Source: an uncultured Methanosarcinales archaeon
GTDB lineage: Archaea; Nanobdellota; Nanobdellia; Woesearchaeales; UBA12501
Length of the DNA: 64,000 bases
NCBI GenBank assembly: GCA_964397315.1
Contig: CAYNHV010000005.1
Location: forward strand, 1 to 64,000
Reading direction: 5' to 3'
Each line of letters begins with the position of its first letter. The first letter of the stretch is position 1. Below, one piece after another: positions 18,040 to 34,027 of the stretch. The translations under genes were made by a program, and so were the position numbers. The notes beneath the pieces are model-generated. The model searched no databases. It was given only the letters and a program-made list of their open reading frames with translations, and was not told where the DNA came from.

Positions 18040-18122
18040 TAGATAAAAAAAGAGAAAAAACCAAAAAACACCAGTTTAAGATATTATAGATGCCCTCCTA
18101 TAATGGGTATAAAAGGGCATCT
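18040..18122 (-). terminator. Terminator at the end of the minus-strand ORFan array
   Basis: agatgccct(18088-96)/agggcatct(18114-22) stem followed by several T-tracts on the minus strand. Confidence 0.6.
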
Positions 18123-18132
18123 GGATATGCGA

Positions 18133-19713
18133 TTACTCCCTGAGAAGCAGGGGAAGCGGATCTGGAACGTCCTCGTTGAGCACTTCTGCGCAGAAATCCA
18201 CAGGATGCATGTCCGCGTGCTCGCTGCGCCATCCTGACCTCAGTCCCTCGCACCCGCAGGGGCAGTCAGGGCAGAGGTACGGCTGCAGCTCCTCAGGCAT
18301 GGGAACCATGGAAGGCCCGAACGGGATGATCATTGTGCCGTTGGAGTACATTGTCATGTCTTTAGTTTTGCCGAAGGTCTTCAGAGTAAACTTCAGGAAG
18401 CTTTTGAATTCATCATCGATGGGAAGGTCATTGATGTCCACTGCCTCTCCCTGGCGCAGTATGAGGAGGTCCGGAGAACATTCCCATGTGTAGGAAGGAT
18501 TGGGTTTGAAGAACCTTTCCATCACCTTCTCGTTAAAAGGCAACATGTGTTCTACTATGCCCTCCAGAGCATCCAGCGCGAGAGGTAATGAGCCGACTTC
18601 GCTGAAGAGAGTGATCCGGCCTTCTGCGTTTAAGAAACAAATCCCTTCTGCGCTTATGACACTCCTGATCTTTCTGATGATGCTTCTCGCATGTTCAGAA
18701 CCCTTCAGCCTGTTGAGAGGGTAGTAGTTAGTGCCGATGAGCAAGAAAAGACCAATGGCATCATAGAAGATGATCTCCGGCAGCTTTTTCTTTGCGCAGG
18801 CATCAAGCTTTTCCATCTGCTCCTGCATCCTTCTCTCGGCGCATCTCATCATGTTCTTGTATTGGCCGGTCTCTTTCAGCCGATGGAAAAGAAAGCCTGT
18901 GAAGAGCTCGTTGAGCTTGTCCTGCCCCTCCTTCAGGAGGTAATCCTCAAAGAGATGGAGGAGATCAGAGAGGGCCCCTCTTTTGCCGCGTAGGCCGCGG
19001 ATGAGGATGTTGCTGAGCAGGTGGCTTCGTATCATGCCCATGTATTTCACGAAATCCCTGAAAATGCTGTTCAGCAGTGCATCCCCTTCGTCCTGGAGGT
19101 ATTGTTCTGCAGCTGCATTGTTGAGAACAGGCCGGAGAGGGACTCCCAGCACCACCTTTTTCTTGAGGTTTTGATACTGCTCAGAGAGGTGGAAAGGGTT
19201 TTTCAGCTCAACAGCCTCTTCCTGGTTGAGGTCCCTGAATGGAGGCATTTTAGGAGGCCTTTCCTTCCTTTTTTTAGTGCGGTTGATGAGGTTTCTGATT
19301 TCCGGCGGCATGCCGCTGAACAATGCGCCTGGCTCTTGCAGAAAATGCGGCTCATATTTTGGAAGGGTAAACAGAGGCAGGTCAGGGATAGGAGGGAATT
19401 CTTCCCCGTCGCAGGGATCGTTTAGAAGAGCCTTGCCAACGGCGTTTCTGAGCTCTTCAGAATTATATTCCTCGCGGGGGGGGTTGTTGAGAAGAATCCT
19501 GTCAATGATTTCTTCTAAATTATGAGGTGGCTTTCTGGTGCTGCCGCTCCCTTCAATCATTACCTCAATCCCATCCAGCGTTTCCTGTACAGAAACAAAC
19601 CCGCTGAAATTTTCAGGGACTCCATCCAGGATTTTTCTCATCTTCTCACCACCTACCCCTGATTCAGCAAGCGCTTCCTCCAATTGTTTTTTGTCTGCCA
19701 CAAACTTAGCCAT
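18133..19713 (-). CDS. Hypothetical protein, C-terminal Cys cluster
   Basis: 526-aa ORF, GGAGG SD, CPDCPCGC...H..FC. Confidence 0.8.
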   Translation of the reverse strand: MAKFVADKKQLEEALAESGVGGEKMRKILDGVPENFSGFVSVQETLDGIEVMIEGSGSTRKPPHNLEEIIDRILLNNPPREEYNSEELRNAVGKALLNDPCDGEEFPPIPDLPLFTLPKYEPHFLQEPGALFSGMPPEIRNLINRTKKRKERPPKMPPFRDLNQEEAVELKNPFHLSEQYQNLKKKVVLGVPLRPVLNNAAAEQYLQDEGDALLNSIFRDFVKYMGMIRSHLLSNILIRGLRGKRGALSDLLHLFEDYLLKEGQDKLNELFTGFLFHRLKETGQYKNMMRCAERRMQEQMEKLDACAKKKLPEIIFYDAIGLFLLIGTNYYPLNRLKGSEHARSIIRKIRSVISAEGICFLNAEGRITLFSEVGSLPLALDALEGIVEHMLPFNEKVMERFFKPNPSYTWECSPDLLILRQGEAVDINDLPIDDEFKSFLKFTLKTFGKTKDMTMYSNGTMIIPFGPSMVPMPEELQPYLCPDCPCGCEGLRSGWRSEHADMHPVDFCAEVLNEDVPDPLPLLLRE

Positions 19714-19727
19714 GATTCCTCCCTTCC

Positions 19728-19922
19728 TTAGTTTAGGGTTGTTAAGCCGGGGTTTAGAGGAATGATTTCCCCTTCTTCAATAATGAAGCTGGTTCCGGGC
19801 TCGTCAGGGAGAGCTTCCATACGCTTTGATATCTCCTCCTCAGGCGCGCCCAGCCATCTCAGGTACTGCTCTAAGTCACGCTTGGTTTTCAGGATAACAA
19901 CTTCTGCCTCTTCTTCACCCAT
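19728..19922 (-). CDS. Small hypothetical protein
   Basis: AGGAGG SD; resembles the N-terminus of 18133-19713. Confidence 0.7.
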   Translation of the reverse strand: MGEEEAEVVILKTKRDLEQYLRWLGAPEEEISKRMEALPDEPGTSFIIEEGEIIPLNPGLTTLN

Positions 19923-19968
19923 TCATCCTCCTTTCTGAATTTCCTTTCATCTGCAGGTGTGCTTGGTT

Positions 19969-20235
19969 TCAGTCATCAGTCCCTTGCTCTGGCTGAGCCT
20001 TCTGCAGGGCATCATCTTCTTCCATACACCTTATGGTCGTTGTTGTGGATAAGTACATTCCCAGCATGAACATAACCGTGCTGAGAATGAAAGGAGAGAA
20101 ATCCATAAGAAGCATTCTGCCAGAGGCAGTCACCTTCATCATGGTGAAGATAAAGAACCAGGATCCAAGAAGGCAGCACAGGGAGCCCGCGATCAGGTAG
20201 ACTATATTTCTTATTATCGTGAATGTTTCCTTCAC
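19969..20235 (-). CDS. Two-TM membrane protein
   Basis: AGGAGGTG SD, GTG start, two TM helices. Confidence 0.7.
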   Translation of the reverse strand: MKETFTIIRNIVYLIAGSLCCLLGSWFFIFTMMKVTASGRMLLMDFSPFILSTVMFMLGMYLSTTTTIRCMEEDDALQKAQPEQGTDD

Positions 20236-20274
20236 TCCATCACCTCCTTTCTTTTGGTCTTGTTCTGGATTGAT

Positions 20275-20310
20275 GGCGCTCCCTGCTCTTTTCAGGAGTT
20301 AAGAGAGCGC
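20275..20310 (-). repeat. Intergenic hairpin repeat H
   Basis: ggcgctccctgctcttttcaggagttaagagagcgc, identical to the start of the 21882 and 23076 copies. Confidence 0.9.
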
Positions 20311-20323: not shown

Positions 20324-20719
20324 TTATTGTTCTGCTTCGGGATTCTTGAGGAACTTGGTAACATCATAATGGCCGTATGCTTCTGCAAGCTGCATTGGCG
20401 TGTTCTTCAATTTGTTGGTGGGGTTGAGCTCTTTCATGGCTTCAGCAAGAACACCGACAACTGCAGACCTGCCGTGGGCTGCAGCAAGGTGCAGCGGAGT
20501 GTTGCCGACATTATCCTTAACATTGACATCAGCGCCTTTGCTTATTAGAGCTTTCGCGATTACAGCAAAGCCTTCTCTTGCTGCAAGATGCAGCGCTGTC
20601 ATGCCCCCTATATCCCCCATGTCCGGGTCAGCTCCCTGTTTGATGCAATCCTCCACAGCTTCAAGATTGTTGCTCAAGACTGCCGTGAAAAGCCTTTTGC
20701 GCTTCTCATCCTCCTGCAT
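20324..20719 (-). CDS. Ankyrin repeat protein
   Basis: G.TALHLAAREG...LI.KGADVN.KD..GNTPLHLAA..G; AGGAGGTG SD before ATG 20719. Confidence 0.95.
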   Translation of the reverse strand: MQEDEKRKRLFTAVLSNNLEAVEDCIKQGADPDMGDIGGMTALHLAAREGFAVIAKALISKGADVNVKDNVGNTPLHLAAAHGRSAVVGVLAEAMKELNPTNKLKNTPMQLAEAYGHYDVTKFLKNPEAEQ

Positions 20720-20800: not shown

Positions 20801-20809
20801 CGGTGGTTG

Positions 20810-21844
20810 TTAAAGTAAGGGAGTTCCCCTGCTTTGCAGTATTACGCCGGTCAGGTGGGCCAGCTCTGCCATCTGCTCTTCAGTGTAGTTTCCCTCGCCG
20901 AGGATGTTATCCAGGGCCATTGAGAATGTGTCCGGCATCGGCAGCTCAGGGTCAGTGCAAAGATGAGTGAACCACCCCTTCCTTTCTTTTGCTTCTTTCA
21001 GCAGGCGCGAGAATTCCCTGTCTCTCAGCTTGACAGACGGCTCGGCTTTTTTACTGAGGTATTCCACTACCCCTGCTGCGCCTCCCTTCTTTACTGAGAA
21101 AAATGTCTTGTTCAGGAGTTTAACTGGCTTGCCGTCGGCTGACACAATCCCCTTGTTGTCATCCCAGGAGCAGGGATTCTCCGGGAATTTCCTGTGAATC
21201 TGCGTGGTAGACGCATAAGAAAGCACCAGCGAGCCGTCTTCGTTCTTGTCAAGAACAGTAACTTTCAGGGGGGCTTTGTGCAGTAACAGGATATCTCCCT
21301 GCTCCAGGCTTTCCCATTTCTCCCTCATGCAGGAGAGAAGGTTACTCATCCTTTTATGGAAGTCCTCCTCAAGGACAATCCTGAGTCCCGCCGGATCCGC
21401 GAACATCTCGCCGGTTTTTGTAACCGGGCATGCTCTCTCTTCATCCCAGTGAACAGGGTTGGAATCTTGCGGCTGACTCTCATGGCTATCAGTATAGGAA
21501 AGCACCAGGCCGTCATGGAATTCTTTAAGCACCTTGAATATTGAGGGACCGCACTGAAGGTACTGCCCTTCCTCCAGGCTGTACCACATCTCCTTTACCG
21601 CTATGGAGGAATAGATGCCGGTATAGTAGGGAACCTTGCAGTCAGCTTCTCTTCTGGATTTCATGGGAAGGTCGCGCTTGTCGCTCCACTTTACTTTCCT
21701 TCTTTCTCCAGAGGGGATATCCTTGAGGGTAAGTTTCCCCCTACGCGCTTTCTCAACAAGGAACCACATCCTTTGAGTCTGGATTACATCGCCTACTCCC
21801 AGTGAAGACCATGTTTCCCTGTCCATTATTTTCTCTCTTTGCAT
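20810..21844 (-). CDS. Hypothetical protein with three internal W.SL..GD repeats (paralog 1)
   Basis: WSSLGVGD, WYSLEEGQ, WESLEQGD; similar along its length to 21929-23050. Confidence 0.85.
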   Translation of the reverse strand: MQREKIMDRETWSSLGVGDVIQTQRMWFLVEKARRGKLTLKDIPSGERRKVKWSDKRDLPMKSRREADCKVPYYTGIYSSIAVKEMWYSLEEGQYLQCGPSIFKVLKEFHDGLVLSYTDSHESQPQDSNPVHWDEERACPVTKTGEMFADPAGLRIVLEEDFHKRMSNLLSCMREKWESLEQGDILLLHKAPLKVTVLDKNEDGSLVLSYASTTQIHRKFPENPCSWDDNKGIVSADGKPVKLLNKTFFSVKKGGAAGVVEYLSKKAEPSVKLRDREFSRLLKEAKERKGWFTHLCTDPELPMPDTFSMALDNILGEGNYTEEQMAELAHLTGVILQSRGTPLL

Positions 21845-21881
21845 CAGTTTACTCCTTTCTTCAGGATTTGTTTAAGGTTAT

Positions 21882-21936
21882 GGCGCTCCCTGCTCTTTTC
21901 AGGAGTTAAGAGAGCGCCGGGTGGCGGTTTATTGGT
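21882..21936 (-). repeat. 55-bp direct repeat containing hairpin H
   Basis: Identical to 23076-23130. Confidence 0.95.
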
Positions 21937-23050
21937 CGCGTCTGGAAAGCAGCCGGGATAACAGACTGCCAAGTCTTAATGAAGAAAACCGGCTTTTTTC
22001 CTCCTCCAGTTTTATGTGGAAATCCAGGATGAGGGAGACGATGCGTGCCAGCTGCTCTTTGTTGTAATTGCCCTCCCCCAGGATTCTGTCCAGTGCTATG
22101 CTGACTGCATCCTGAAGATTAAGGTTGTTGAGGGATTCCATGATATCTTTGATTTCTTCCGTATGCCTGCTTATGATTTGCCCACATTCCTCTGTGCTGA
22201 GCTTGATTGATGGTTGAAATTTTTTTCTGTAATGTTCCAGGATTTCCATAGCTCCGCCTTTTTTGACTGAGAAGAGCTTGTCGCTGAGACCTGTCACATG
22301 AACCCCTTCAAAACTGACAATGCCATTTTCATCATCCCATCTGCAGGGGCTTCCCTGAAACACCTTGGTAGTGGGCGGATTGCGGCTCATGGAAAGAGTC
22401 AGCCCATCTTCTGCACTGTCCAGGACTGCTATCTCCTCCTCGGAGCCGGGAGAGTCTGGATTCTTCACCACTATGCTGTCTCCAGGCTCAAGGCTGTGCC
22501 ATGCCTCTTTCATTGATGATACTACCTGGATGAGGTCCTCTTCTGTAACAACCCTGAAAGGGAGAAGGGGAGCAAAAGGGCGGCCGTCTTTCATAGGCAA
22601 TTTATTTTTCTCATCCCAGTAAGAAGGGCTGAGGGCAGGATTTACCCCCTGGTGTTTATCACCGTAGGACAACATCAGTCCTCTGTCATCCCTTTTCTTG
22701 ATAACCCTTATCAGCCCGGTGGGGGGACGCAACAAATTTAGGTTTAGGTAATCGCCTTCCTTGAGCGCCTTCCATTCCTTCTCCATCCCTGCCAGCTCTT
22801 CTGAAGAGAAGACGGCTGAGATAGGGGAGATATGGGAATAAGAAGTCCCGTCCTCTTCCACAGGCAAAAGCGTGTCAGTCCATGTGAGCTTTACCTTTTC
22901 TCCGTCGAAAAGATTCCTGAGTGTCAGCACCCCCTCCTTGCGATGGGCTGTTTCTACGATGTGAAATGTTCCACTTGGGAGAGGAAGGACACCGACTATA
23001 ATGTCTCCTTTCTTCAGGGAATACCACCGTTCAGGTGCTAGTTTATCCAT
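21929..23050 (-). CDS. Hypothetical protein with three internal W.SL..GD repeats (paralog 2)
   Basis: WYSLKKGD, WKALKEGD, WHSLEPGD; shared FSVKKGGA and ALD.ILGEGNY. Confidence 0.85.
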   Translation of the reverse strand: MDKLAPERWYSLKKGDIIVGVLPLPSGTFHIVETAHRKEGVLTLRNLFDGEKVKLTWTDTLLPVEEDGTSYSHISPISAVFSSEELAGMEKEWKALKEGDYLNLNLLRPPTGLIRVIKKRDDRGLMLSYGDKHQGVNPALSPSYWDEKNKLPMKDGRPFAPLLPFRVVTEEDLIQVVSSMKEAWHSLEPGDSIVVKNPDSPGSEEEIAVLDSAEDGLTLSMSRNPPTTKVFQGSPCRWDDENGIVSFEGVHVTGLSDKLFSVKKGGAMEILEHYRKKFQPSIKLSTEECGQIISRHTEEIKDIMESLNNLNLQDAVSIALDRILGEGNYNKEQLARIVSLILDFHIKLEEEKSRFSSLRLGSLLSRLLSRRDQ

Positions 23051-23075
23051 TTCATCCTCCTTTCTTTTTTGTTAA

Positions 23076-23130
23076 GGCGCTCCCTGCTCTTTTCAGGAGT
23101 TAAGAGAGCGCCGGGTGGCGGTTTATTGGT
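23076..23130 (-). repeat. 55-bp direct repeat containing hairpin H
   Basis: Identical to 21882-21936. Confidence 0.95.
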
Positions 23131-23288: not shown

Positions 23289-23762
23289 TCAGGCTGCGCA
23301 CTCATCCTTGCTCCCGGCCACAACCCTAAGGCCGTAGTTTTCAAGGTCTATTGTCTCAATGCCGTGCAGCTTCACGAGATTCTCAAAGCTTTCCCGGCCG
23401 ATCTCAAGGTAGTAGCGCTCCATGTATTTCTCCTTTATGAGCAGGTAGCCCAGGACAAAATTTGCGCTAGCCCCTTTCGCAGGCTCTTTTGCGATGAAAG
23501 GCCCTTCAATGCTTATTTCTCCCTTCCTGAAGAGGCTGACCAGGCCTTCAACCAGTTTTCCAGCAAGCTCATGCTCCCTCACTCTCTTCCCCAGGATCTT
23601 CTCAGCCAGCTCTTGCTTCTTCTCCAGCCGTTTAACTATGGCCCAGGCCATTACTCTCATGGTGTGCTCGTCACCCAGCTCTCCCTGCTGGTAGAAAAAG
23701 ACGGCCTCTGCAAAGTGCTTTTCATCCTCCTGATTGGAGTTGTTAATCACAGGATTCTCCAA
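23289..23762 (-). CDS. Hypothetical protein
   Basis: AGGAGG SD, TTG start, coding-like composition. Confidence 0.7.
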   Translation of the reverse strand: MENPVINNSNQEDEKHFAEAVFFYQQGELGDEHTMRVMAWAIVKRLEKKQELAEKILGKRVREHELAGKLVEGLVSLFRKGEISIEGPFIAKEPAKGASANFVLGYLLIKEKYMERYYLEIGRESFENLVKLHGIETIDLENYGLRVVAGSKDECAA

Positions 23763-24016
23763 TTCTGAGCCCTCCTTTCTAGCTCTTGCTTTTCTTGGAT
23801 TCTTCTCCTGCAGGAGGAGAGGCAGCCGCCTGTCTTTTTGCGGACTTCTTGCTGCGATAATGGGGGCCTTCTCTCACCCTGCCCAGCTCATTGTTCCGCC
23901 TGCATTTTTCTCTTGAAAGCTTGCTTGCCATCTGCTTCTCCTTTCTCATGCTCGCGCCCTTGCGCGCAGGGGCTCCTTGCTCCTTCCTTTTTCTTTCTCA
24001 TCAGGCTTTTTTGCCT

Positions 24017-24271
24017 TTATAACTGGATGATCTCAGGAAGACCAGGCTGCATCAGCTTGTTGTGCTCTTCCTCTGGCAGGAATTCAGTCAGCAGGACATG
24101 AAGGGGGATTATCTTTTTTGACATTGTCACAGCCACCACCATGCCGAACATAGGGACCACTTTTTTCACATACACTACTTCATTTCCTTCCCTGCTAACG
24201 TACTTGACTCCCTCTATTCCTTTTCCTTTTCTCACGTCGCTTTCATCTTCCTTGCTGGTGAATCTTCCCAT
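24017..24271 (-). CDS. Small hypothetical protein
   Basis: AGGAGG SD. Confidence 0.65.
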   Translation of the reverse strand: MGRFTSKEDESDVRKGKGIEGVKYVSREGNEVVYVKKVVPMFGMVVAVTMSKKIIPLHVLLTEFLPEEEHNKLMQPGLPEIIQL

Positions 24272-24347
24272 TTATCTCCTCCTTTGATTAGTGATTGATA
24301 TTTGCTGCGCTGTTATTTTCAATTGTATTTTCAATTGTGAAATGTTT

Positions 24348-24390
24348 AAAAAAAGAGGGAGCCCTCCAGACCGTGAAAGAAGACTCCCTC
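24348..24390 (-). terminator. Hairpin + T7 intrinsic terminator
   Basis: gagggag(24355-61)/ctccctc(24384-90) stem followed by 7 T on the minus strand. Confidence 0.6.
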
Positions 24391-24415
24391 AGGGGCAACT
24401 GTTCCGGCAGGGTTT

Positions 24416-24808
24416 TCAGGCGTCTGATTTGTGGCTTAAGACAGCTGTGACTTTCTTCCGCAGGGTTTCCTCTTTTTCCCTGCCTGTGATGCAGAGTTGG
24501 TTGATGTTCCGGATTATATCCTGCATTCCAGGGAAGAGGTTTGCCCAGCCATTAAGCCCTTTTTTCAATGACTCCCGGTCTGCTCTCAGGGAGCTGACGA
24601 GGAAGTGGACATCTGAATCATTGTTCTTGACAACATCCTCCGGAGACTCTGAAATGTCAAGCTTGCGTATGACAGGGTCCTTTATGCCAAACTCCCCCAG
24701 GATGTCTTTCAGCCTCTCAAGACAGTCGTCGCCTTTTGGCCCTTGTTTTAGGTTGGCCCTAACAATGATACAGCAATTGTACCTGCTGCTCTGCTCGATT
24801 TCCTGCAT
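24416..24808 (-). CDS. Hypothetical protein
   Basis: GAGGAGG SD before ATG. Confidence 0.65.
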   Translation of the reverse strand: MQEIEQSSRYNCCIIVRANLKQGPKGDDCLERLKDILGEFGIKDPVIRKLDISESPEDVVKNNDSDVHFLVSSLRADRESLKKGLNGWANLFPGMQDIIRNINQLCITGREKEETLRKKVTAVLSHKSDA

Positions 24809-26576: not shown

Positions 26577-27047
26577 TCATTGCATTGGAGCTGAGAGGAA
26601 ACTGCCGCCGCCTTCAGAGTCCCATGTTTCAATAAGGTCTGAGGGATTCACCTGCTCCACAGCTGTTATGCTCAGCTTATTGATGAGGCAGTCAGCCTCT
26701 TCTGCAGGAAGCCTGAGTGTTATGAACCTGCAGCTGATGCCCATGCTGTCCCTGCATTTGATGTAGTAGGTGAAGGAGGTGTAATCGCTCCTGCAGGCAG
26801 CTCTTTTTTCCTCCAACATTCTCCTGACCTCAGGCAAGAATACATCTAAGAGGTTCGGCCTGCTTTCCTCCCCTCTCATTGCAGGATGTCCTGATATCAC
26901 AGGCCCGAATATGCGGATGTCCTGCTCGTCAAGTGACGGAACATTCTCTCTCAGTATCGCCAGAACATTGGCGTCCCTGTTGCCTCTCTTTGCCTGCTCC
27001 AGGGCCATGATGAGCTTCTTTCTTGCCTCAAGGCTCATATTTCCCAT
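26577..27047 (-). CDS. Hypothetical protein
   Basis: AGGAGG SD. Confidence 0.65.
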   Translation of the reverse strand: MGNMSLEARKKLIMALEQAKRGNRDANVLAILRENVPSLDEQDIRIFGPVISGHPAMRGEESRPNLLDVFLPEVRRMLEEKRAACRSDYTSFTYYIKCRDSMGISCRFITLRLPAEEADCLINKLSITAVEQVNPSDLIETWDSEGGGSFLSAPMQ

Positions 27048-27175: not shown

Positions 27176-29047
27176 TTATTCAGGCAGGCTGAGGCTGAAT
27201 TCCACCACTCCGCTGACAGGGGACACCGGGCCTCCTGCGCTGCCTGTATCATGATTCGTGATATTCACCCTGTTCTTGGAGTCTGTATCATAGGTCATCA
27301 CATTGCCCAGGAAGTTGACAACGCTTGTGGTGTCGTCAAGGACATGCTTTGTTCCGGAATCCCATATCCAGGCTGAGGCGTACAGCTCTTCATCATCACT
27401 GTCTTCGCTGATGATATAACCAAAGTAGTTCCCTCCTGCATCCTCAAAGTCAACCTGTAGGCTTCTGCTGGGAAGGCTAAGGTCAAAGGCGCCGTCGTAA
27501 AGGGTGGGGATGTAGTTGAAGGTGGAGAGGTTGGTGTATGCTGCTGCAAGGGTGTAGTTTGTGTCATAGGATACAGGCAGGTTGATGGTGCCGATTCCGC
27601 TGATTTCCATGCTTCCGTCAGAGAATGCGTTCCATACAACCTCATGCGCCTCTCCAGTTGTGAGGTTTTTCACGTCAGCTGTTATGCTGCTGCCTTCTGC
27701 TATGCTGCTCAGCTCCAGAATGTTGAGGGCTCCTGAGCTGTCCATTGCAGCGACAAGAACTCCCTCAAAATCCTGTAGGGAAGCGGCTTCAACTGTCTGG
27801 GCGCATGCAGGGCAGAATGTCTGGTCTGACAGCAGAGGATGATCAGGCTCTCCAATCACGATTCCGCTGCCTGTGCCGTACATTGGGATGTCCACTCTTC
27901 TGCTGTCCTTGTTTGTGAGGGACACCTCTCCCAGGCCGGCTGAGGCGTTCCACTCAACTGTCTCGCTCTGGTTGTATATTCCGTTGTATGTCCAGTTGAA
28001 CCCATTGACGGGACAGGTAACAGCCTGGCCAGGCTTGAGCGCTTCCCCACCTGCAGGATCTTCGGCACCGTATCCGAAAACTTCAAGATAACCATTTCCG
28101 CTTGTGTAGGAGTCAATGTAGCTGACAGTGCCTTCCACTTCCTCGCTGTTGCGCTTGAGGGGCTGGCCGTCCTTGCTGAACTGCACCTCTTCTGCGTGCA
28201 GGATTACCTGGCAGGCATTGGAGATTGTTTCTGTGACTCCTACGCTGATGCTGCCGGCCTTTTCCATGCTGCCCTCGCTTATGTTGACAGTGTCAGTGTT
28301 GACGCTCACGCTGCAGGAGCCTGAAGAAGGCAGCGGCTCCACAGTTACTTCAGCAGCCCCGCCTGCGCAGCTGTTTTGGCACTGGCTTGCCTGGTAGAAG
28401 TAGTATGTCACGCCGGACTCAAGGAACACGGGATTGAAGCCTTTTGTGCTCCGCATCAGGGTGAGGTATGTTATCTCACCAATGTTCCTGCTCGCAGAGG
28501 TTATGATGTTCTCCACATGGTATCCTGCAACCGGAATGCTTATGCTTGTTCCGGCCAGGTCCTCTTGCGTCTCCTGCAGGGAGTATTCAACTGGCTCGTC
28601 AAACCAGAGCTCCCAGGTGTAGGCGAGCTGCGGGCTTTCCTGGAAAGAGAGCAGAGGCCCCATGTAATCCCCCTTTGTGCCATAGTGGTGCTCCACCCTG
28701 AACCAGGCCTCTGACTCGTAGGAGGTTGAGTTGTCATTGGCGCCTTTACTGTCATTGTACTCGCCAGCAAACTCAGGCAGCTGATAGCTTCCTGCTGTGT
28801 AGGCGCTTACGGCGTAGTTGGGGTAATAGTTGTAGGAGGAGTCCAGCTTCTGCTGTGAGACTATGTTGCTGTCCTCCTCAACCTGCGGCGTGTCATTGCT
28901 GTTATTGTAATTGTTTATGGTTGTGTCCCCTCCGCTGTCTCCGCAGCCGGTGGCGAGCATTGCGGTCATGAGTGCGGTTATCACGGCAATGGTTATGGCC
29001 GGCTGCACATTCGCTATTGTTCTTACTATTGTTCTTACTATCCTCAT
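27176..29047 (-). CDS. Lipoprotein resembling DPANN S-layer-like proteins
   Basis: AGGAGG SD before MRIVRT; LATGC lipobox; acidic beta-rich body with AYTWELWFDEPV...DLAGTSISI. Confidence 0.65.
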   Translation of the reverse strand: MRIVRTIVRTIANVQPAITIAVITALMTAMLATGCGDSGGDTTINNYNNSNDTPQVEEDSNIVSQQKLDSSYNYYPNYAVSAYTAGSYQLPEFAGEYNDSKGANDNSTSYESEAWFRVEHHYGTKGDYMGPLLSFQESPQLAYTWELWFDEPVEYSLQETQEDLAGTSISIPVAGYHVENIITSASRNIGEITYLTLMRSTKGFNPVFLESGVTYYFYQASQCQNSCAGGAAEVTVEPLPSSGSCSVSVNTDTVNISEGSMEKAGSISVGVTETISNACQVILHAEEVQFSKDGQPLKRNSEEVEGTVSYIDSYTSGNGYLEVFGYGAEDPAGGEALKPGQAVTCPVNGFNWTYNGIYNQSETVEWNASAGLGEVSLTNKDSRRVDIPMYGTGSGIVIGEPDHPLLSDQTFCPACAQTVEAASLQDFEGVLVAAMDSSGALNILELSSIAEGSSITADVKNLTTGEAHEVVWNAFSDGSMEISGIGTINLPVSYDTNYTLAAAYTNLSTFNYIPTLYDGAFDLSLPSRSLQVDFEDAGGNYFGYIISEDSDDEELYASAWIWDSGTKHVLDDTTSVVNFLGNVMTYDTDSKNRVNITNHDTGSAGGPVSPVSGVVEFSLSLPE

Positions 29048-29176: not shown

Positions 29177-29353
29177 TCAGGATTTCCTGCTTTTTCGTTT
29201 TCTTCTCCTCCTTCTGGGAGTTATGCCTGTATCTCTGCTCTCCTCTTCGCTCCTGTCTTCTTCTCCGGATTTCTCTCCAGGTTCTCCTCTAGCAAGACTT
29301 TGTCTTGACCTTTGGGTGTGTCTTCCCGGGCCTTCCCTGTCGTTTCTGGCCAT
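29177..29353 (-). CDS. Small charged protein with Arg-rich tail
   Basis: AGGAGGTG SD before MARND; ends PRRRRRKRKSRKS. Confidence 0.45.
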   Translation of the reverse strand: MARNDREGPGRHTQRSRQSLARGEPGEKSGEEDRSEEESRDTGITPRRRRRKRKSRKS

Positions 29354-29758
29354 CTGGCTCACCTCCTTTGATGGCTCTTTGCTTTTCTCGCTCTGCCCTT
29401 TTTCGCTTCTCTCTCCCATAGGAAGGGTCCGGCTGCCACTGGTGCAATGCTAGAGGAAGGTTCCGGGCAGCCGGCGTGGGGAAAAAGGCAGATGTTATTT
29501 TTTTATTTCTCCTCAGTTTGCTCAAGTAATCCAGGCGGGAAATGCATCCTGTTTGACGGCGGTTTTTCAGGCTCCTGCTGACAGGGCTTTTCAGAATGTG
29601 ATTCATCACCCTCTCCCTGGCCGGAAGAGCGGGATACAAGGCCGCTCCATCTATCATCAGCAGCTCCGGCAGGTTTAAGGGCAAGAGGACACTCCCCTGG
29701 ATCGCATCCTAATCTTATGCATTTTCTTGACGGACTTCCCGGACAACGCTTATCCAGC

Positions 29759-30043
29759 CTACTCAACTTCAACCCTCCTTCCAGGCATGAAAATGCCGTT
29801 TCCCGCTGCAATCCTTGCTGTCTCCACGCATTCCTTTGAGCAGGCCCGTTCTTCTTCGCTGAGAACAAAATGCTCATCAGGAAGCCGCCTGCCGCAGAAC
29901 ATGCAGTGAGTCTCACTGTAAAGTTTTCTTGCTTCTCTCACCAGCTCCATGACCATTTCCGCCATTCCGGCCGCAGCTGCGAGCGCGAAGAAAGCGAGAA
30001 TGAGGCAAAGTATTACAAAACGCAGTGTAAAGAAATCTTCCAT
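29759..30043 (-). CDS. Membrane-anchored Zn-finger protein
   Basis: N-terminal TM; CMFC...CSKEC; GAGGAGG SD. Confidence 0.7.
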   Translation of the reverse strand: MEDFFTLRFVILCLILAFFALAAAAGMAEMVMELVREARKLYSETHCMFCGRRLPDEHFVLSEEERACSKECVETARIAAGNGIFMPGRRVEVE

Positions 30044-30288: not shown

Positions 30289-30522
30289 CTAATGGTTTGT
30301 ATCTCCCTGTATCGTGAGCAGCACCCTCCTGCAGTGATCGCATTTCCATGTGCATATTACGCCAGGGAGGAGGGCTTTCTTCATATAATCAATATCTGAT
30401 GTCCTGAAAGTCTTTGTCTTGCCGCAGCCAGGGCAGATAAATATTTTCCTCCCCTCTGCTGTTTCTGAGTTTATAACAAGCTGCCCGTCTTCTTCCCCTT
30501 TCAATCTCATGATCTCTTTCAT
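30289..30522 (-). CDS. Zn-ribbon protein
   Basis: CPGC...CDHC; AAGGAG SD. Confidence 0.6.
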   Translation of the reverse strand: MKEIMRLKGEEDGQLVINSETAEGRKIFICPGCGKTKTFRTSDIDYMKKALLPGVICTWKCDHCRRVLLTIQGDTNH

Positions 30523-31523
30523 GCCTTTGTTCTCCTTTGTGTTCTTTGGTTTAAGGGTTTCAAAAAATGGAGCCCGGAAGGAAAAAGCAAAGGGAGGAAT
30601 TTCTCTGCTCTTGTAAACCTCCCGGACTCCCAAAACCTGTTAGAAGGATTTTCAGACCCTGGCCTATATGTAAACCTGCTGTGCAGGGGGTTGGAAAAAG
30701 TGCTCAAGAGCAGAGGGCGGTATTTGCTCCTGAGCAAAGTGATCATTAACAGTGCTTGGAGCACTCAGACAGCTGCAATGCCTTCAGGCAATGCATCAGG
30801 ACCTTGCCCTGAGTTCCGGTTTGCGCCGGTGAAAGAAAATGTATTCTGTTTTCAAAGAGCCTCACACCTGATTTCAGACCAGTACGTCAGGTCCTTTCTC
30901 TGCATTATCCTCCTTTCTCCAGGTCAGGCTACCCTGGCAGAATAAGATAAAGCCCTGCTGCGCTGCAACCTCAAATAATAGTTTTGAAGTTGAAGGATTT
31001 AGAGTCCTTTGTCTTGTGGTATTGGAAGGTCTTTCATGACACCTCCCTTGTGAAAACTAAGTGTGAAGGGTTTAAGTTTCTTGCTGTCCCATGTTCTCCC
31101 CGGTTCTGTTTCCTCTTGTTCTGCAGCAGGGCTTAAGCCCAAAAATGTGGGAGCCGGCGCTGAGGAGCGCTGAGGCCGGGTTCTGCAGCAATCAGGAGTA
31201 GAATGTCATGCAGAACTGCTTATTATACACCGTCCACTGCTGCCGGCTCCCTCAGGCTGGAGGAGAAATAGCTTAAAAAATGGGGCCTGAGGAGGTAAAA
31301 GGAGGTGCCTGCTTTGCAAGCATGGGCCGAACTGTGTCGCTGTGCAGACAACATACCCAGGCCCCGACTCCAAATAGGTGTTGGAGGAGAAAGACTTTTT
31401 TATTCCCCGGCTTCCTGCCCTGTTAGGCAAAGGAGGACAACAGGTTTCCTGAGAGAAATGCGCAAATCCCAGGATTCATGCAGGAAGCCGGGGTTCAGGA
31501 GGAGAAGAGACGATATTTTCGGG

Positions 31524-31808
31524 TCAAACCTCAGGAAGCTCTATCTCATCATCAAGCATCAGAAGGAAAGTCAGGTATGTCTGCGCAGTCATCCAGAAGT
31601 CAAAAGCTTCTGTTATCTGCTCCTGAGTGGGAAAGCGTATCCTGATGGTGCTGCTGTTGAAGCTGAAAATATCCATGGCTAAGTATTGAAGGAAGGCAAT
31701 CTGCATCTCTTCATCTCCGCCTTTCTCTTCCACCTCCTTGCACGCAAGGCTTGTAAGTTGAGTTATGTCACTTGTCCGTTTCTCACCCCCTTTGCTGCAA
31801 TTTTTCAT
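31524..31808 (-). CDS. Small hypothetical protein
   Basis: AAGGAG SD. Confidence 0.5.
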   Translation of the reverse strand: MKNCSKGGEKRTSDITQLTSLACKEVEEKGGDEEMQIAFLQYLAMDIFSFNSSTIRIRFPTQEQITEAFDFWMTAQTYLTFLLMLDDEIELPEV

Positions 31809-31948
31809 AACTTGCTCCTTTCTTTTGGGTTATCAACAGCTCATAACAGGATCAGGGTTTAAAGGATGCCGGGCTCTGGTGCTCTGCATACGCTGCATGA
31901 ATGCCCGGCCCGGCTTTCCTATGCCTGCTCAGCTAGGACATATCCTCC

Positions 31949-32284
31949 TCAGCTGAGGTACGGTGCCGACTTGAGTCTTCTTGCCATCTGAGAAGCTGTT
32001 GAAATCGTCCTGTCCGCTGCGGTTATCCTTTTGGAGCCGGTTTTTGCCGTTTTCGGTGTTATGGTCCCTTCCTGGCTGATAGCGGCTGGTCTGCTTATTT
32101 CAGCCTTTTCAGAAGGGGCTGCCTTGGCGGTTATGGACGGAGCAGGAGTATTCCCCTGGGCTGCCGTCATGGTGGCGGTCTCGTAAGAGCCATTTAAAGC
32201 CTCGCTCTGCTCTGCCTGCTGGATAATGAAGAATGAGATGGCCAGTATTGTAGCCAGCAGCAAAATAAACCTGAGTTTACCCAT
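31949..32284 (-). CDS. Secreted/anchored A/T/S-rich protein
   Basis: N-terminal signal/TM, low-complexity body, AAGGAG SD. Confidence 0.6.
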   Translation of the reverse strand: MGKLRFILLLATILAISFFIIQQAEQSEALNGSYETATMTAAQGNTPAPSITAKAAPSEKAEISRPAAISQEGTITPKTAKTGSKRITAADRTISTASQMARRLKSAPYLS

Positions 32285-32442
32285 GCTTGGCTCCTTTCTG
32301 GCTAAGGGTTAAGCTGTTTTTGGACAAGTTACGCTGCCCCTGCCTTGTTCTGCTGTTTCAGCTACCGCGCATTACCACCTCCTTTCGTGGGATTAACAGA
32401 TGCTGAGTTTAGTCATTCCCTGCCTGAAAGGACTGCGTTCCC

Positions 32443-32664
32443 TCACTCAACATAATTTCTTAACCGATACAGGTTGATAAGAAGGAAGATGATTAAACTG
32501 TCTAGAATGAGAAGGATGATGATGGTGATGATATCAACTGCTGCTGGACCTCCTGCAGCTTGCATGGCGAGGCAGATCTCCAGCGTCGTAATGGCGAGTA
32601 GAAAGAGCAGGCATGCTCCTATGAGCAAAAGAGGCAGGATTCTGCTATTTACCCTGCTGCTCAT
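32443..32664 (-). CDS. Two-TM membrane protein
   Basis: Two hydrophobic helices, AAGGAG SD. Confidence 0.6.
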   Translation of the reverse strand: MSSRVNSRILPLLLIGACLLFLLAITTLEICLAMQAAGGPAAVDIITIIILLILDSLIIFLLINLYRLRNYVE

Positions 32665-32716
32665 AATCTTCTCCTTTCTCCAGAAATTCTGGAAGTTAAT
32701 TATGGCCTCCTGCCAC

Positions 32717-33469
32717 TCACTGAACAGTCACCGAGACAATCATGTTTTCAGGGCCTATATGCTCTATACAGTCCACACATATGCCGCCGCCTTTGCTCAT
32801 GCCCCTCTTGATGGTCGGGAGCATGTATGTCCTCTTCTCTTCCTCCTGGGTTTTGACGCCGAACTCGTCATATTTGGCCTCTTTTGTTACCTCAGTGATA
32901 AAGGGCACTCCGCAGTTTTGGATTTCATAGCGGAGGGTAGAGCAGCAGGCTTCTTTTACATTCTCCTTTCCAAAGATAAATCCAGGACAGTATAATGCCT
33001 CTCTGGTCTTGCCTGACTTCAGGGTGATCCTCCACACATAGGCCTGCATCTTATGTCTGTTGACTATGTACTCATCTACAAAACCGCCCCTCCTTTTATG
33101 CAGTTTAGTGCAGGACCAGTGATAGGAGACAGAATCTGTCTTGTCTGTCAGAATCTCAATCTTCCTGAGCTTTGGAGAGGGGATTGTAAAGCCAACATAG
33201 TCTTTGGGGGAACTCCTACACATCTTCTCAAGCCCCATAGTCAGACCCAGCTTGCCTCTTCTGATCCTCCTTTTCATTGTGGAACCATCAGCCAACTTGA
33301 GCACTACAGTGACCATTGGGCCTTTTGAACTGCCTGCTTTTGAGCTGTCAGGAGGTATTACCCAAAAGAGGCTGAATAGGGAAAGTATCAAGAGGGTTGT
33401 GATTATGCCCATGAGCACATTTTCTTCTCTTCCTTTCCCTTTTATTCCTTTCATGCCTGCTTTCCTCAT
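32717..33469 (-). CDS. Membrane-anchored hypothetical protein
   Basis: AGGAGG SD before MRKAG; one TM; several Cys. Confidence 0.65.
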   Translation of the reverse strand: MRKAGMKGIKGKGREENVLMGIITTLLILSLFSLFWVIPPDSSKAGSSKGPMVTVVLKLADGSTMKRRIRRGKLGLTMGLEKMCRSSPKDYVGFTIPSPKLRKIEILTDKTDSVSYHWSCTKLHKRRGGFVDEYIVNRHKMQAYVWRITLKSGKTREALYCPGFIFGKENVKEACCSTLRYEIQNCGVPFITEVTKEAKYDEFGVKTQEEEKRTYMLPTIKRGMSKGGGICVDCIEHIGPENMIVSVTVQ

Positions 33470-34027
33470 GCCAGTCCTCCTTTCTCTTCTTTCTATTGAG
33501 GAATTTGTTAAACCTTGTAACTTACAGAATTCCTTATATGCTATTATGGCTTTTCCGCCTTTTTCCTTTAAGAATTCTTCATTCTCAGGCATTCACATCC
33601 GGAAGATGATGGAAATAAAACTGTCTAAATCGCACCTTTTCTGGTGTGACTTGCCAAACCCACTTGCTTTCTCAGCGCTCCTCAATGGGTTTTTCAGGGT
33701 TTTCCAGGTCCACTCGCAAGAGCATTTCCGCCTTTGTCTGTAACCATGATGGTTCAGATCACTGAGGTTTCAATGCAAAACTCACGGCTTCCTACTCTGC
33801 ATCTGCGTTGGCATGGAGCACAAGGTCATTCTCATTTTAGAGTTAATGATCCGCGCTTCCTGCAGAGTCCCTGCAAAAACTTAGTTGTTGTAAGTTTTTG
33901 GTTGTTGTTTGTTGTCGTGTTGTGATGTAAAAAAGTATGATTTGTGATATATTTGTGTGGAATGATAAGGTGTTTGTCATCATGTTTTATTAATATTTTC
34001 CTGCTCTGGCATGCTGATTATAGGGGA

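Follow-up and report, generated by a model that had tools for sequence, protein, structure and literature searches.

A tiny symbiotic DPANN archaeon carries a cargo of about 23 orphan genes downstream of a DNA-pump-like ATPase, and this array is what varies within a larger module that also includes a coiled-coil protein, the ATPase, 8-mer motifs and a leader. The explanation that we favor, with moderate confidence, is that the array is replaceable cargo of an ATPase module that some Woesearchaeota-type DPANN archaea carry, expressed as a single transcript with a Shine-Dalgarno (SD) sequence for each cistron and with punctuation that recombines. No published description of such an arrangement, an orphan-gene array following a conserved ATPase, was found in the literature. 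The window analyzed was a 64,000-nucleotide stretch of contig CAYNHV010000005.1, in which curation yielded 23 minus-strand genes from 33469 to 18133, an unbroken one-strand series of ~ 16 kb (33.5-18.1 kb) that matches the roughly 23 consecutive ORFs counted in an earlier, sequence-only reading and makes up 1.08% of the 1.47-Mb genome. Nineteen of the 23 genes are confident calls, while cargo 7, 8, 12 and 16 are doubtful (Table 1).

Table 1 Features of the array, its leader, the ATPase operon and the flanks, in window coordinates
Feature	Position	Strand	Description
Orphan gene upstream of ATPase operon	37151..38752	-	533 aa; promoter-like site 38837; no family found
Control region, ATPase operon	36647..37150	-	promoter-like site 36763; YGGAAAAVC at 36675, 36998, 37029
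Coiled-coil-like partner	36158..36646	-	162 aa
HerA/VirB4-class P-loop ATPase (DUF87)	34028..36145	-	705 aa, C-terminal winged helix, no TM
Leader	33470..34027	-	promoter-like site 34003-33984; T-run 33935-33929; CA-rich tract 33924-33894
Cargo 1	32717..33469	-	250 aa, N-terminal TM, 8 Cys, SD-led
Cargo 2	32443..32664	-	73 aa, 3 TM-like segments
Cargo 3	31949..32284	-	111 aa, signal or TM at N-terminus
Cargo 4	31524..31808	-	94 aa, orphan with SD
Gene-poor 1-kb stretch	30523..31523	-	no credible gene; highly structured, z -8; SD-led mini-ORFs
Cargo 5	30289..30522	-	77 aa, CxxC...CxxC, zinc-ribbon-like
Cargo 6	29759..30043	-	94 aa, N-terminal TM and Cys motifs
Cargo 7	29503..29766	-	87 aa, TTG start; doubtful
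Cargo 8	29177..29353	-	58 aa, highly charged; doubtful
Cargo 9	27176..29047	-	623-aa lipobox lipoprotein, S-layer-like
Cargo 10	26577..27047	-	156-aa orphan
Cargo 11	25973..26455	-	160-aa orphan
Cargo 12	25738..26025	-	95 aa, without SD, 53-nt overlap with neighbor; doubtful
Cargo 13	24915..25628	-	237 aa, signal peptide; LPP20-like as weak lead
Cargo 14	24416..24808	-	130-aa orphan; its SD is one side of joint (24819)
Spacer	24272..24415	-	hairpin then T7; most terminator-like site within array
Cargo 15	24017..24271	-	84 aa, one TM-like segment
Cargo 16	23779..23931	-	50 aa, basic; doubtful
Cargo 17	23289..23762	-	157-aa orphan, TTG start
Cargo 18	21929..23050	-	373 aa; three W-x-SL-x-x-GD repeats and helical domain
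Cargo 19	20810..21844	-	344 aa; tandem paralogue of cargo 18, 35% identity
Cargo 20	20324..20719	-	131-aa ankyrin-repeat protein
38-nt hairpin repeat, copy 1	20273..20310	.	other copies 21880-21917, 23074-23111
Cargo 21	19969..20235	-	88 aa, 2 TM, GTG start
Cargo 22	19728..19922	-	64-aa acidic orphan
Cargo 23	18133..19713	-	526-aa orphan
Predicted transcription-unit end	18042..18121	-	hairpin 18121-18089, then three oligo-T runs 18072-18042
Flank two-gene module	17202..17961	-	192 aa and 65 aa, no Pfam family; leaderless-type promoter 18001

An SD (GGAGG, AGGAG or GAGGT no more than 22 nt from the start) precedes 22 of the 23 array genes, cargo 12 being the exception, so that the earlier description of nearly all ORFs as SD-led holds. 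The signal is stereotyped, with GAAAGGAGG about 7 nt upstream of ATG, and 9 of the 17 sites genome-wide that combine GAAAGGAGG with a start fall within the array. Strong-SD-plus-ATG matches on one strand number 45 in the array, compared to a median of 10 and a 95th percentile of 17 over 398 sliding 16-kb windows and to 23 in the best window off the array's contig, making the array the genome-wide extreme. SD usage inside the region is above the genome background, not equal to it: of 1698 genes called elsewhere, 12% are SD-led at the default start, a share that rises to 31% when any plausible start is allowed, and co-directional neighbors carry an SD in 25% (gap 20-150 nt, n = 393) or 32% (gap < 20 nt, n = 336) of cases, rates that are approximate as the gene calls are crude and the choice of start leans toward SD. 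The arrays of genomes G003, G129 and G085 show SD-plus-ATG densities 3 to 30 times those of stretches sampled from the respective genomes; this enrichment is absent from the G122 array, and in G015, G098 and G100 the array is either short or unclear.

It had been suggested that these SDs are tuned to translation in a host cell, a reading that lacks support, since an anti-SD is present at the 3′ end of the organism's own 16S (GGATCACCTCCT). In a version likened to T-DNA, a host archaeon would receive the neighboring DNA, or the products of that DNA, through the DNA-pump ATPase, with SD-type signals tuned to the recipient. The sharp difference in expression-signal style from the rest of the genome would fit such delivery, as would the position of the array beside a winged-helix ATPase of the HerA/VirB4 class with oriented 8-mer sites. 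The cargo also includes ankyrin repeats, classically an effector domain, the ankyrin label given earlier to cargo 20 having been confirmed. However, up to a third of the organism's own genes use an SD, including its S-layer gene, in which it is strong, codon usage in the array is ordinary for the genome (an equal or greater deviation is seen in 13 of 69 control blocks), and the signal peptides, the lipobox and an S-layer paralogue in the cargo point to the organism's own envelope. We consider expression in another cell very improbable.

The array also differs from the rest of the genome in its promoters. Outside the island, a TATA-like hexamer at -38 to -24, peaking sharply at -32 to -28, precedes 27% of 1021 long genes, compared to none of the 23 array genes, in keeping with the flanking genes having been described as starting just behind a TATA box with little leader. 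Within spacers, the hexamer occurs in 3 of 18 cases in the array vs 166 of 265 in the background. A promoter model trained on the genome's own leaderless genes (training median 10.2) placed minus-strand sites scoring at least 10.2 between 17 and 39.2 kb only at 38837, 36763, 34003 and 18001, none of them inside the array; at a 25th-percentile cut, the model is noisy, with 4.8 sites per kb per strand. The strongest predicted promoter (36763, score 14.4) is in the control region of the ATPase operon, and a further strong one lies 25 nt past the ATPase stop (34003), the next being at 18.0 kb. These results support the earlier proposal of a polycistronic locus, with a single transcript predicted from the promoter scan. 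An archaeal promoter just past the ATPase stop would most likely drive a transcript of ~ 15.9 kb, from 33.97 to 18.05 kb; the CA-rich leader noted near 33.9 kb is present, and the terminator placed at 18.1 kb agrees with a likely end of the predicted transcription unit there. A hairpin with T7 at 24.3-24.4 kb could split this unit. The organism's mRNAs appear to be mostly leaderless, with one promoter per gene, and since the array has no predicted internal promoters, every cistron would need its own ribosome-binding site (RBS), in the stereotyped form of which (GAAAGGAGG, 7 nt, ATG) a match to the 16S 3′ end can be seen.

Hairpin punctuation, as claimed earlier, was borne out for spacer folding, with 7 of 17 array spacers at z < -2 vs 16% of 200 background co-directional spacers (Mann-Whitney p = 0.0013), but not for stems followed by T-runs, a scan for which was at chance (26 found vs 24.8 ± 4.4 expected). 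The strongest spacer hairpin (27175-27048, z -7) adjoins cargo 10. GC-rich hairpins after many cistrons probably stabilize or grade the mRNA. The hairpins are short (~ 35 nt) and mutually unrelated, except for one 38-nt repeat whose three copies all lie in the array and nowhere else in the genome, and the tandem pair formed by cargo 18 and 19 includes a duplicated 91-nt spacer with hairpin and RBS. The gene-poor stretch had no match in an Rfam search, and its SD-led mini-ORFs may be decayed cassettes.

Promoter-proximal, promoterless orphan ORFs on one strand with intervening hairpins recall an integron-type cassette array or CALIN, in which site-specific recombination would act at attC hairpins, and integrons in archaeal MAGs are on record in at least one report (10.1101/2022.02.06.479319). 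However, R''...R' pairs (RYYYAAC / GTTRRRY) number 0 in 15,951 nt against a shuffle mean of 1.9, no tyrosine recombinase was found with Pfam among the 55 window ORFs, the hairpins are almost all unrelated, and the sole mapped joint lies in RBS tracts rather than hairpins, making this origin extremely improbable. An integron-type array was thus set aside on two defining features, an attC-like site and an integrase. The looser notion of an expanding gene-cassette array retains some support in the tandem paralogue pair and a 3.8-kb joint.

This joint was seen in contigs of two sister samples, which connect 20985 to 24819 across the 3.8-kb gap with flanks differing by 0-3 letters; mean word depth in these samples is ~ 0 over most of 21170-24504 and 1.3-1.7 in the bin 23171-23837. 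The contigs behind the joints are from a single study and have a depth of 4-6; replacement is as possible as deletion. One side of the joint is the RBS of cargo 14 and the other an SD-like purine tract in cargo 19, and a sister-sample contig also joins back from 21879 to 20273 via the 38-nt hairpin repeat. In sister samples, the cargo 20 ankyrin gene is a variant with 8 non-synonymous and 4 synonymous codon differences. No cargo is common to other loci, apart from one weak match of 36-67 aa between cargo 6 and the G003 array, and cargo gene order is not conserved in relatives. Cargo turnover is fast, as gene content differs between species and between co-occurring strains of one mat. The repeated punctuation, that is, purine-rich RBS tracts and hairpin repeats, would provide microhomology for deletion, duplication and replacement, by which gene content would shift at both levels.

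Directly upstream, 40 nt beyond the region first delimited, lies the conserved ATPase operon, and its 705-aa ATPase is the anchor of the module. The fixed part consists of the coiled-coil and HerA/VirB4-class ATPase operon, flanking pairs of YGGAAAAVC and a conserved leader. The congener G003 has the ATPase-partner pair in the same place, beside Vut_1 and TGT, with 73-75% identity, which is the degree of conservation of the flanking genes, and a homologue of the partner adjoins the ATPase in 8 other loci (29-73% identity). Pairs of YGGAAAAVC, as oriented 8-mer sites, occur on both sides of the operon in many loci, and the three copies at 36675, 36998 and 37029 form the genome's sole cluster of at least 3 per kb. 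The leader (~ 540 nt) is alignable across 5 congeners, has a fold z of -5.1 and contains the motifs CCTGGAAAACCC (33708-33697) and GGCGGAAAAGCC (33559-33548); in its hairpin at 33693-33654, pairing is kept across congeners despite changes on both sides. The 533-aa gene upstream of the operon is without a match in the other loci, and G003 does not share it, which makes this position a second variable slot. The two-gene flank module has a paralogous pair on contig C9, and in G111, homologues of the module sit immediately next to the ATPase, the intervening array being absent. Adjacency of the ATPase and the array is no proof of joint function.

The ATPase is patchy, occurring in 13 of 121 genomes at the order level and, within the family, in 2 of 11 genera, consistent with the earlier description of an accessory locus, yet it is 50-64% identical across families. 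In G013, the block is absent and PAC2 directly adjoins the small ORF homologous to the one at 38.9 kb. Given this absence and the patchiness, the 21.6-kb block in its entirety could represent an old mobile insertion, that is, an integrated DPANN mobile element at 17.2-38.9 kb, whether plasmid-like, conjugative or viral, with the ATPase as transfer or packaging motor, the 8-mers as recognition sites and the array as accessory and morphogenesis genes. Small orphan and TM proteins in one-strand arrays are typical for archaeal plasmids and viruses, which this array resembles, and a T2SSE (PilT/VirB11-type) ATPase in the G003 array and weak Zot and terminase P-loop matches point the same way. However, searches of PHROGs (26 proteins), Pfam and NCBIfam turned up no family of integrases or of replication, capsid or portal proteins, in agreement with the earlier statement that the cargo has no capsid, integrase or replication genes, and HMM searches of the locus gave no viral, integron or defense hallmark. 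Relatives of the ATPase are absent from 2.9 million viral contigs by single-protein and profile searches, while phage and plasmid collections yield only DUF87 proteins at 22-27% identity. The window contains no tRNA, and the flanking direct repeat is limited to a 15-nt promoter-like match. The block occupies the same site in the congener with a divergence equal to that of flanking housekeeping genes, its codon usage is native, and its depth in the source sample (5.7-11.2) is like that of the flanks (7.4-9.6). An integrated element is, on this evidence, unlikely.

The favored reading, replaceable cargo of an ATPase module, was also compared to an array acting as a sink for bacterial genes, for example from ultra-small Patescibacteria, with SDs, hairpin-T-runs and lipobox inherited. 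The style of the punctuation is that of bacteria, a lipobox is present in cargo 9, the LPP20-like label of cargo 13, a weak lead only (Atlas score 0.83), comes from bacterial clusters, and the G129 array has 40-45% GC vs 29-35% in sampled stretches of that genome. On the other hand, two large cargo proteins have no outside homologue among 5.8 billion proteins, bacterial included: cargo 23 matched only itself, and cargo 9 only the genome's own archaeal S-layer family protein on contig C9, a distant paralogue (25% over 432 aa, E 9e-21) that supports the earlier S-layer-like label. A third, cargo 18, belongs to a very small family with 10 matches of unassigned origin among 1.84 billion representatives and none in 400 other genomes of the phylum. 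Codon usage is again ordinary, and an RBS stereotyped over all cistrons is unexpected from mixed donors, which leaves a bacterial sink distinctly improbable. For the zinc-finger label, the cargo 5 match to HVO_2753_ZBP (E 0.004) is below the cut-off. The cargo consists mostly of small orphan proteins, about a third of them membrane or secreted, including the S-layer-like lipoprotein, and one ankyrin protein. These features suggest that the cargo most likely acts at the cell surface or in host-cell contact, with the surface function applying to a minority, since just 8 of 22 examined cargo genes have a TM or signal segment.

The 23 curated genes of the array run unbroken along the minus strand from 33.5 to 18.1 kb, 19 of them called confidently and four doubtful, and nearly every one is preceded by a Shine-Dalgarno (SD) site, as a sequence-only reading had proposed, with an SD core no more than 22 nt from the start codon in 22 of the 23. 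When these sites were aligned on GGAG, three A's were found ahead of it, each in 86–95% of the array genes compared to 31–72% at the same three positions in 309 SD-led long genes elsewhere, and the SD-to-start spacing was ~7 nt. Sites consisting of GAAAGGAGG plus a start number 17 in the genome, and 9/17 lie within the array, which represents 1.08% of the genome. A count independent of gene calls (strong SD, 4–10 nt, ATG) in 16-kb windows (n = 398) gave 45 on the array coding strand, against a median of 10, a 95th percentile of 17 and 23 in the best window of another contig, placing the array at the extreme of the genome for SD usage. Other windows with high counts, on contigs C11, C14, C26 and C18, were rejected as SD-led arrays, with an SD of at least 6 in just 4/14, 1/20, 4/16 and 3/19 genes. 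Outside the array, by crude gene calls, SD sites were present at 12% of default starts and in 31% of genes when any plausible start was allowed. Among co-directional neighbours outside the array, the class expected to be operon-internal, the rate was 25–32%, again by crude gene calls, indicating that operon-internal position alone is insufficient to explain 22/23 in the array. A TATA-like hexamer peak 28–32 nt ahead of the start codon, the signature of leaderless or near-leaderless mRNAs, was present in 27% of 1021 long genes outside the island and in 0/23 array genes, so that the contrast with TATA-near starts in the flanks also held. The array is a real, statistically extreme feature. No DNA similarity was detected between it and the rest of the genome. 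Ten plus-strand ORFs within the region have no Pfam family and were treated as shadows of the minus-strand genes, and 1 kb at 30523–31523, which contains SD-led mini-ORFs and strong structure but no credible gene, may be decayed cargo.

Given this SD usage, the array had been suggested to be tuned to the SD-dependent translation of a host cell, a suggestion not supported by the genome itself. The 3′ end of its own 16S gene is GGATCACCTCCT followed by T's, complementary to AAAGGAGG, its own S-layer gene carries a 7-nt SD, and the codon usage of the array is unremarkable (at 0.121, its distance is equalled or exceeded by 13 of 69 control blocks of the same size; GC3 0.58 versus 0.53). Together these point to the organism itself as the translating cell and argue against both tuning to another cell and a recent foreign origin of the array. 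A capture of its genes from bacteria received no support here, though it may hold for orphan genes. Two modes of initiation occur in one small genome (1.47 Mb in 61 contigs, with the window the first 64 kb of contig C5), most genes being leaderless and a stereotyped strong SD being used within one long polycistron. The genes flanking the locus are archaeal (eIF2-alpha, PAC2, archaeal-type TGT and Vut_1).

The claim that the locus is polycistronic was examined with a promoter matrix trained on 221 leaderless-type promoters of the same genome, with the training median as cut-off. Minus-strand scores reached this value at only four places between 17 and 39.2 kb (see table), one of them just past the ATPase stop and none inside the array, where the highest score was 9.4. 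TATA-like hexamers were present in 3/18 array spacers compared to 166/265 control spacers. These results agree with a polycistronic locus, and the simplest reading would be a single transcript that begins at ~33.97 kb with a long conserved leader and runs to 18.05 kb. Both the CA-rich tract at 33.9 kb and the end signal at 18.1 kb, read earlier as a terminator, were found. The proposed hairpin punctuation stood in part: folding z-scores were below −2 in 7/17 array spacers versus 16% of 200 control spacers (p = 0.0013), while a simple scan for a stem plus a T-run was at chance, 26 versus 24.8. At 24.3–24.4 kb, a hairpin followed by T7 could possibly impose a partial stop on transcription.

Genes and predicted signals at the array locus
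Feature	Position	Strand	Remark
533-aa orphan gene	37151-38752	-	upstream of the ATPase operon
Coiled-coil-like partner	36158-36646	-	162 aa
ATPase	34028-36145	-	705 aa, HerA/VirB4-class P-loop protein
Cargo array	33469-18133	-	23 curated genes
Promoter-like site	38837	-	ahead of the 533-aa gene; promoter matrix
Promoter-like site	36763	-	ahead of the ATPase operon; promoter matrix
Promoter-like site	34003	-	25 nt past the ATPase stop; promoter matrix
Promoter-like site	18001	-	ahead of the flanking 192-aa gene; promoter matrix
Spacer hairpin	27175-27048		among the four clearest
Spacer hairpin	24415-24272		among the four clearest
Spacer hairpin	21928-21845		among the four clearest
Spacer hairpin	20809-20720		among the four clearest

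Turnover of the array was followed in three DNA runs of one microbial-mat study in which the stretch was found as contigs at low depth. In the likely source sample, contigs span the whole region at flank-like depths. For the two other samples, almost no differences were seen in the flanks, and mean word depth is ~0 across most of 21170–24504, with low cover (1.3–1.7) in the single bin 23171–23837, and in each of them one contig joins 20985 to 24819, skipping 3,833 nt and with it six genes, whole or in part. This joint has one side within the SD of the 130-aa gene and the other in an SD-like purine tract within the 344-aa gene; the form may be either a deletion or a replacement, the two being indistinguishable in one low-depth study. 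In another contig, 21879 is linked backwards to 20273 by way of a 38-nt hairpin repeat that has three copies, all inside the array and none elsewhere in the genome; a tandem duplication or an excised circle would produce such a link. The punctuation of the array coincides with recombination joints between co-occurring strains. In addition, the 344-aa gene and the 373-aa gene form a tandem paralogous pair (35% identity) with a duplicated 91-nt spacer, and 12 codons of the ankyrin gene vary between samples, 8 by non-synonymous changes. Gene order is also not conserved in relatives, as the array of the congener G003 is unlike this one and the sister samples lack the skipped genes.

The variable part of the locus adjoins a fixed one. 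The lower end of the ATPase gene lies only 40 bases above the upper limit of the region marked out by the sequence-only reading, and the coiled-coil-like protein precedes it, as it adjoins the ATPase in 8 other loci. In G003, the same pair is found at the same site beside Vut_1 and TGT with 73–75% identity, similar to that of the flanks, while the 9.4 kb downstream has nothing in common with the array except one weak match of 36–67 aa and is again a one-strand run of small SD-led ORFs. The leader, the 540 nt after the ATPase, is alignable among all five congeners as far as the start codon of the first cargo gene, where the alignment stops. It contains CCTGGAAAACC and then a hairpin (33654–33693) whose stem sequence differs in all five congeners with pairing kept; this could be an RNA or single-stranded-DNA element. 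Folded as a whole, the leader gives a weak consensus RNA structure (−20.3 kcal/mol, 5 sequences) with this one convincing hairpin only, and no Rfam family was matched at gathering score in the window, or at E ≤ 0.1 in 30400–34100. Contigs end inside the leader in two other congeners and ~0.8 kb past the ATPase in a third. Pairs of the motif YGGAAAAVC occur upstream of the operon and in the leader, both here and at most other loci inspected, and 36.25–37.5 kb is the sole place in the genome with at least three copies per kb. The locus thus has an adjacent coiled-coil partner, a flanking 8-mer motif, a conserved leader and a species-unique same-strand array. In G111, the 3′ end of the ATPase gene directly abuts homologues of the gene pair at 17.2–18.0 kb, and in G013 a homologue of the small ORF at 38.9 kb lies 260 nt after PAC2; these arrangements characterise the array as inserted between neighbours that are themselves conserved.

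The central domain of the ATPase matched DUF87/HerA above the Pfam cut-off (E 4.5e-7), and its C-terminus probably forms a winged helix of the F-93/MarR kind, judging from an F-93 match below cut-off (E 1.3e-4). No transmembrane (TM) segment was found in it. Its matches to models of CedD, CedB, VirB4 and HerA were far below cut-off, with NCBIfam scores of 62.2 bits against 600 for the CedD equivalog and 27.5 against 700 for CedB. The best PDB sequence match was 8yho (E 3.9e-7), a code cited in a Sir2-HerA paper, and a PDB profile search with the ATPase alignment returned nothing at E ≤ 0.01. More than 1,190 homologues were found, the mean column identity being 56% across 17 that were sampled, and the named relatives are Woesearchaeota or Nanoarchaeota. 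Distribution is patchy: the ATPase is present in 13 of 121 genomes, one sampled per family across the order, and in 7 of 17 genomes and 2 of 11 genera of its own family, and several genomes of 95–100% completeness yielded no match to it. A second, divergent pair is present in the same genome (C2:79077–80796; partner 29% and ATPase 38–39% identical), with a few small genes behind it, two of them SD-led, and no YGGAAAAVC cluster.

SD-led arrays were also found behind the pair in other genomes. The density of SD-plus-ATG on the array coding strand was 1.74 per kb in G003 versus 0–0.43 in sampled stretches of the same genome, 2.1–3.1 versus 0.10 in G129 and 1.43 versus 0.3–0.7 in G085. G122 showed no enrichment (coding strand 0.15 per kb versus 0.45–0.78 in sampled same-genome stretches), G015, G098 and G100 had short or unclear arrays and G111 had none. 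Pfam assigned no family to 61 of the 64 array proteins at six other loci; the remainder matched T2SSE (an ATPase, in G003), SiaC and, weakly, a zinc-binding family. The larger arrays each have TM-like segments in 5 to 9 of 12–19 genes. The G003 protein, a 396-aa T2SSE (PilT/VirB11-type) secretion ATPase at C103:5977–7167 (E 9e-46), is the only recognisable machine component among the arrays examined. In the AT-rich genome G129 (C10:400–11700), the pair has small SD-led membrane genes on its upstream as well as its downstream side, and GC of this array is 40–45% versus 29–35% in sampled stretches, its genes being 5–15 points GC-richer.

The cargo itself consists mostly of orphan proteins. The ankyrin protein, recognised as such by Pfam, PHROGs and PADLOC in agreement with its earlier label, was the only Pfam match among 21 cargo ORFs scanned and the only cargo protein matched by PHROGs and PADLOC, and NCBIfam gave no match to the cargo proteins submitted. 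Among 5.8 billion proteins, the 526-aa and 623-aa proteins had no homologue except themselves. The 373-aa protein had 10 matches among 1.84 billion representatives and 0 in 400 other genomes of the phylum, two single-protein scans of metagenome contigs gave nothing for its family, a cluster look-up attached neither names nor taxa to it, and Atlas searches with cargo gave only scores under the level that counts. The label of S-layer-like lipoprotein given to the 623-aa lipobox protein is supported by distant paralogy to a protein on contig C9 (25% over 432 aa, E 9e-21) that belongs to the S-layer family (PF05124, 62 bits). TM-like or signal segments were present in 8 of 22 curated genes examined (31524–31808 left out). 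At C9:17962–22012, the gene of this S-layer family protein (812 aa), which has a strong SD, is separated by 0.8 kb from a paralogue (38% identity) of the 192-aa plus 65-aa module that flanks the array here and abuts the ATPase in G111.

Several known kinds of element could account for such a locus. An integron, or an array of its cassettes alone (CALIN), would be consistent with the one upstream promoter and the promoterless same-strand genes predicted here, and was rejected on both attC and integrase: attC core pairs (RYYYAAC / GTTRRRY) numbered 0 on either strand of 18040–33990 (shuffle mean 1.9), and no Phage_integrase-type tyrosine recombinase was matched among 21 + 34 ORFs of the window. 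The earlier description as an expanding gene-cassette array is supported only loosely, by tandem paralogues and strain-level joints, and falls on attC-like pairs and integrase as far as an integron is meant. A virus or plasmid is not supported either. As had been noted for capsid, integrase and replication genes, no viral hallmark (capsid, portal, terminase, integrase or replication) was recognised by PHROGs on 26 proteins, Pfam or NCBIfam; beyond the ankyrin matches, PHROGs gave three sub-domain matches of the ATPase, of a 44-residue P-loop to a terminase family, to an unnamed family, and of the winged helix to a transcription-regulator family. The ATPase had no relatives in IMG/VR (2.9 million viral contigs) by single protein or profile and two matches, 22–23% identical, in 50,697 phage records, the phage and plasmid collections holding remote DUF87 proteins only. 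There is no tRNA in the window, and the only candidate for flanking att repeats is an identical 15-nt promoter-like match, AAAACATTTATATAT, at 16447–16461 and 38867–38881, the two outer borders of the 21.6-kb block at 17.2–38.9 kb. Each copy precedes a plus-strand gene and the two are read as similar promoters; they may possibly be an old att-like duplication, and an old mobile origin of the whole block is possible as well, in keeping with its patchy distribution. HerA-based defence (Sir2-HerA, DUF4297-HerA and the like) was rejected because PADLOC, which gave weak HerA, DndH and mad8 matches on the ATPase, recognised no effector partner among the 26 proteins.

Known systems resemble the locus in part. 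In Haloquadratum walsbyi, flexible ('replacement') genomic islands carry cell-envelope genes at fixed chromosomal sites. As in those islands, the site is fixed between conserved genes, content varies by strain and species, the cargo includes some surface and secreted proteins and assemblies of relatives break there; unlike them, the array is one promoterless polycistron with a stereotyped ribosome-binding site per gene, always lies behind a conserved ATPase operon and leader, and holds mostly orphan genes rather than glycosylation or envelope gene sets. The TraB-clt-spd module of Streptomyces conjugates double-stranded DNA with a ring ATPase of the FtsK-HerA superfamily, 8-bp repeats and small membrane genes. 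Shared with it are clustered 8-bp repeats beside the ATPase gene (YGGAAAAVC, candidate sites) and adjoining small, often membrane, poorly conserved genes, and an ATPase of this superfamily with a C-terminal winged helix may be a further likeness, although the ATPase here matches HerA/VirB4/Ced models rather than FtsK and is without a TM segment, and the locus is chromosomal and syntenic in G003 with no plasmid rep/int genes found by Pfam or NCBIfam. In type VIIb secretion loci, variable effector/immunity regions lie downstream of the FtsK-like ATPase EssC, and here too a conserved FtsK-HerA superfamily ATPase is followed by strain-variable small soluble and membrane proteins; the present locus differs in being archaeal, in having no WXG/LXG or other T7SS families detected and in an ATPase whose winged helix appears to be of a DNA-binding type, in place of substrate-recognition domains. 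The Ced system of Sulfolobales, for DNA import, comprises CedA/A1/A2/B and CedD and likewise combines a HerA-clade, VirB4-related ATPase with small membrane proteins (PMC11868833). CedD and CedB are among the best NCBIfam matches of our ATPase, but it scores far under their cut-offs and is without a TM domain, no CedA/VirB6-like polytopic protein was recognised here, and neither the C-terminal winged helix nor a hypervariable array is characteristic of Ced. Archaea are also reported to carry integron cassette arrays (10.1101/2022.02.06.479319). The likeness to integrons extends to one promoter, promoterless and mostly orphan genes on one strand, hairpin-forming spacers and rapid turnover, the differences being that attC and an integron integrase are lacking here and that joints lie in ribosome-binding-site tracts and a local repeat.

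The array is most plausibly the hypervariable cargo, expressed as one polycistron, of a DPANN ATPase module that is so far undescribed and whose diversification mechanism and function we infer; no published description of the module was found in the literature searched. DPANN archaea live attached to other cells, and their host interaction and DNA exchange are largely unexplored. The gene set that varies most in this genome follows a highly conserved motor ATPase and is set within a defined expression frame, and therefore offers a concrete place to seek host-contact proteins, a DNA-transfer apparatus or new-gene birth. Should ATPase and array prove to be linked in function, the locus would represent a gene-diversification system of a new kind. 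By analogy, one could go further and picture the ATPase as a sequence-guided DNA pump and the 8-mer sites as tags of the array for cell-to-cell transfer, making the array communal transferable cargo, an archaeal counterpart of TraB-clt or T-DNA and an integrase-free platform of gene capture and gene birth, which we regard as a long shot. Under such a DNA pump, the standard frame of one promoter, GAAAGGAGG before every ORF and a hairpin behind it would give immediate expression of any captured or newly arisen ORF.

Elsewhere in the window, positions 1–11500 form an AT-rich island, among the compositional outliers of the genome, with GC of 0.29–0.39 compared to 0.46–0.53 in the remainder, which encodes a 513-aa protein with an Mrr_cat restriction-endonuclease domain (3843–5384) and a Bles03-domain ORF (2209–2625). 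Six consecutive large minus-strand ORFs (1772, 654, 287, 424, 1092 and 739 aa) at 47656–63617, with Pfam domains (Ig-like Big_13, Glucodextran_B and Pur_ac_phosph_N) only in the first, may be a second orphan surface-protein block. Finally, a short repeated element at 41243–41688 and 55216–55787, 94% between copies, has a further copy on contig C2 (~65336–65497, 98%) and may belong to a mosaic intergenic repeat family of the genome.
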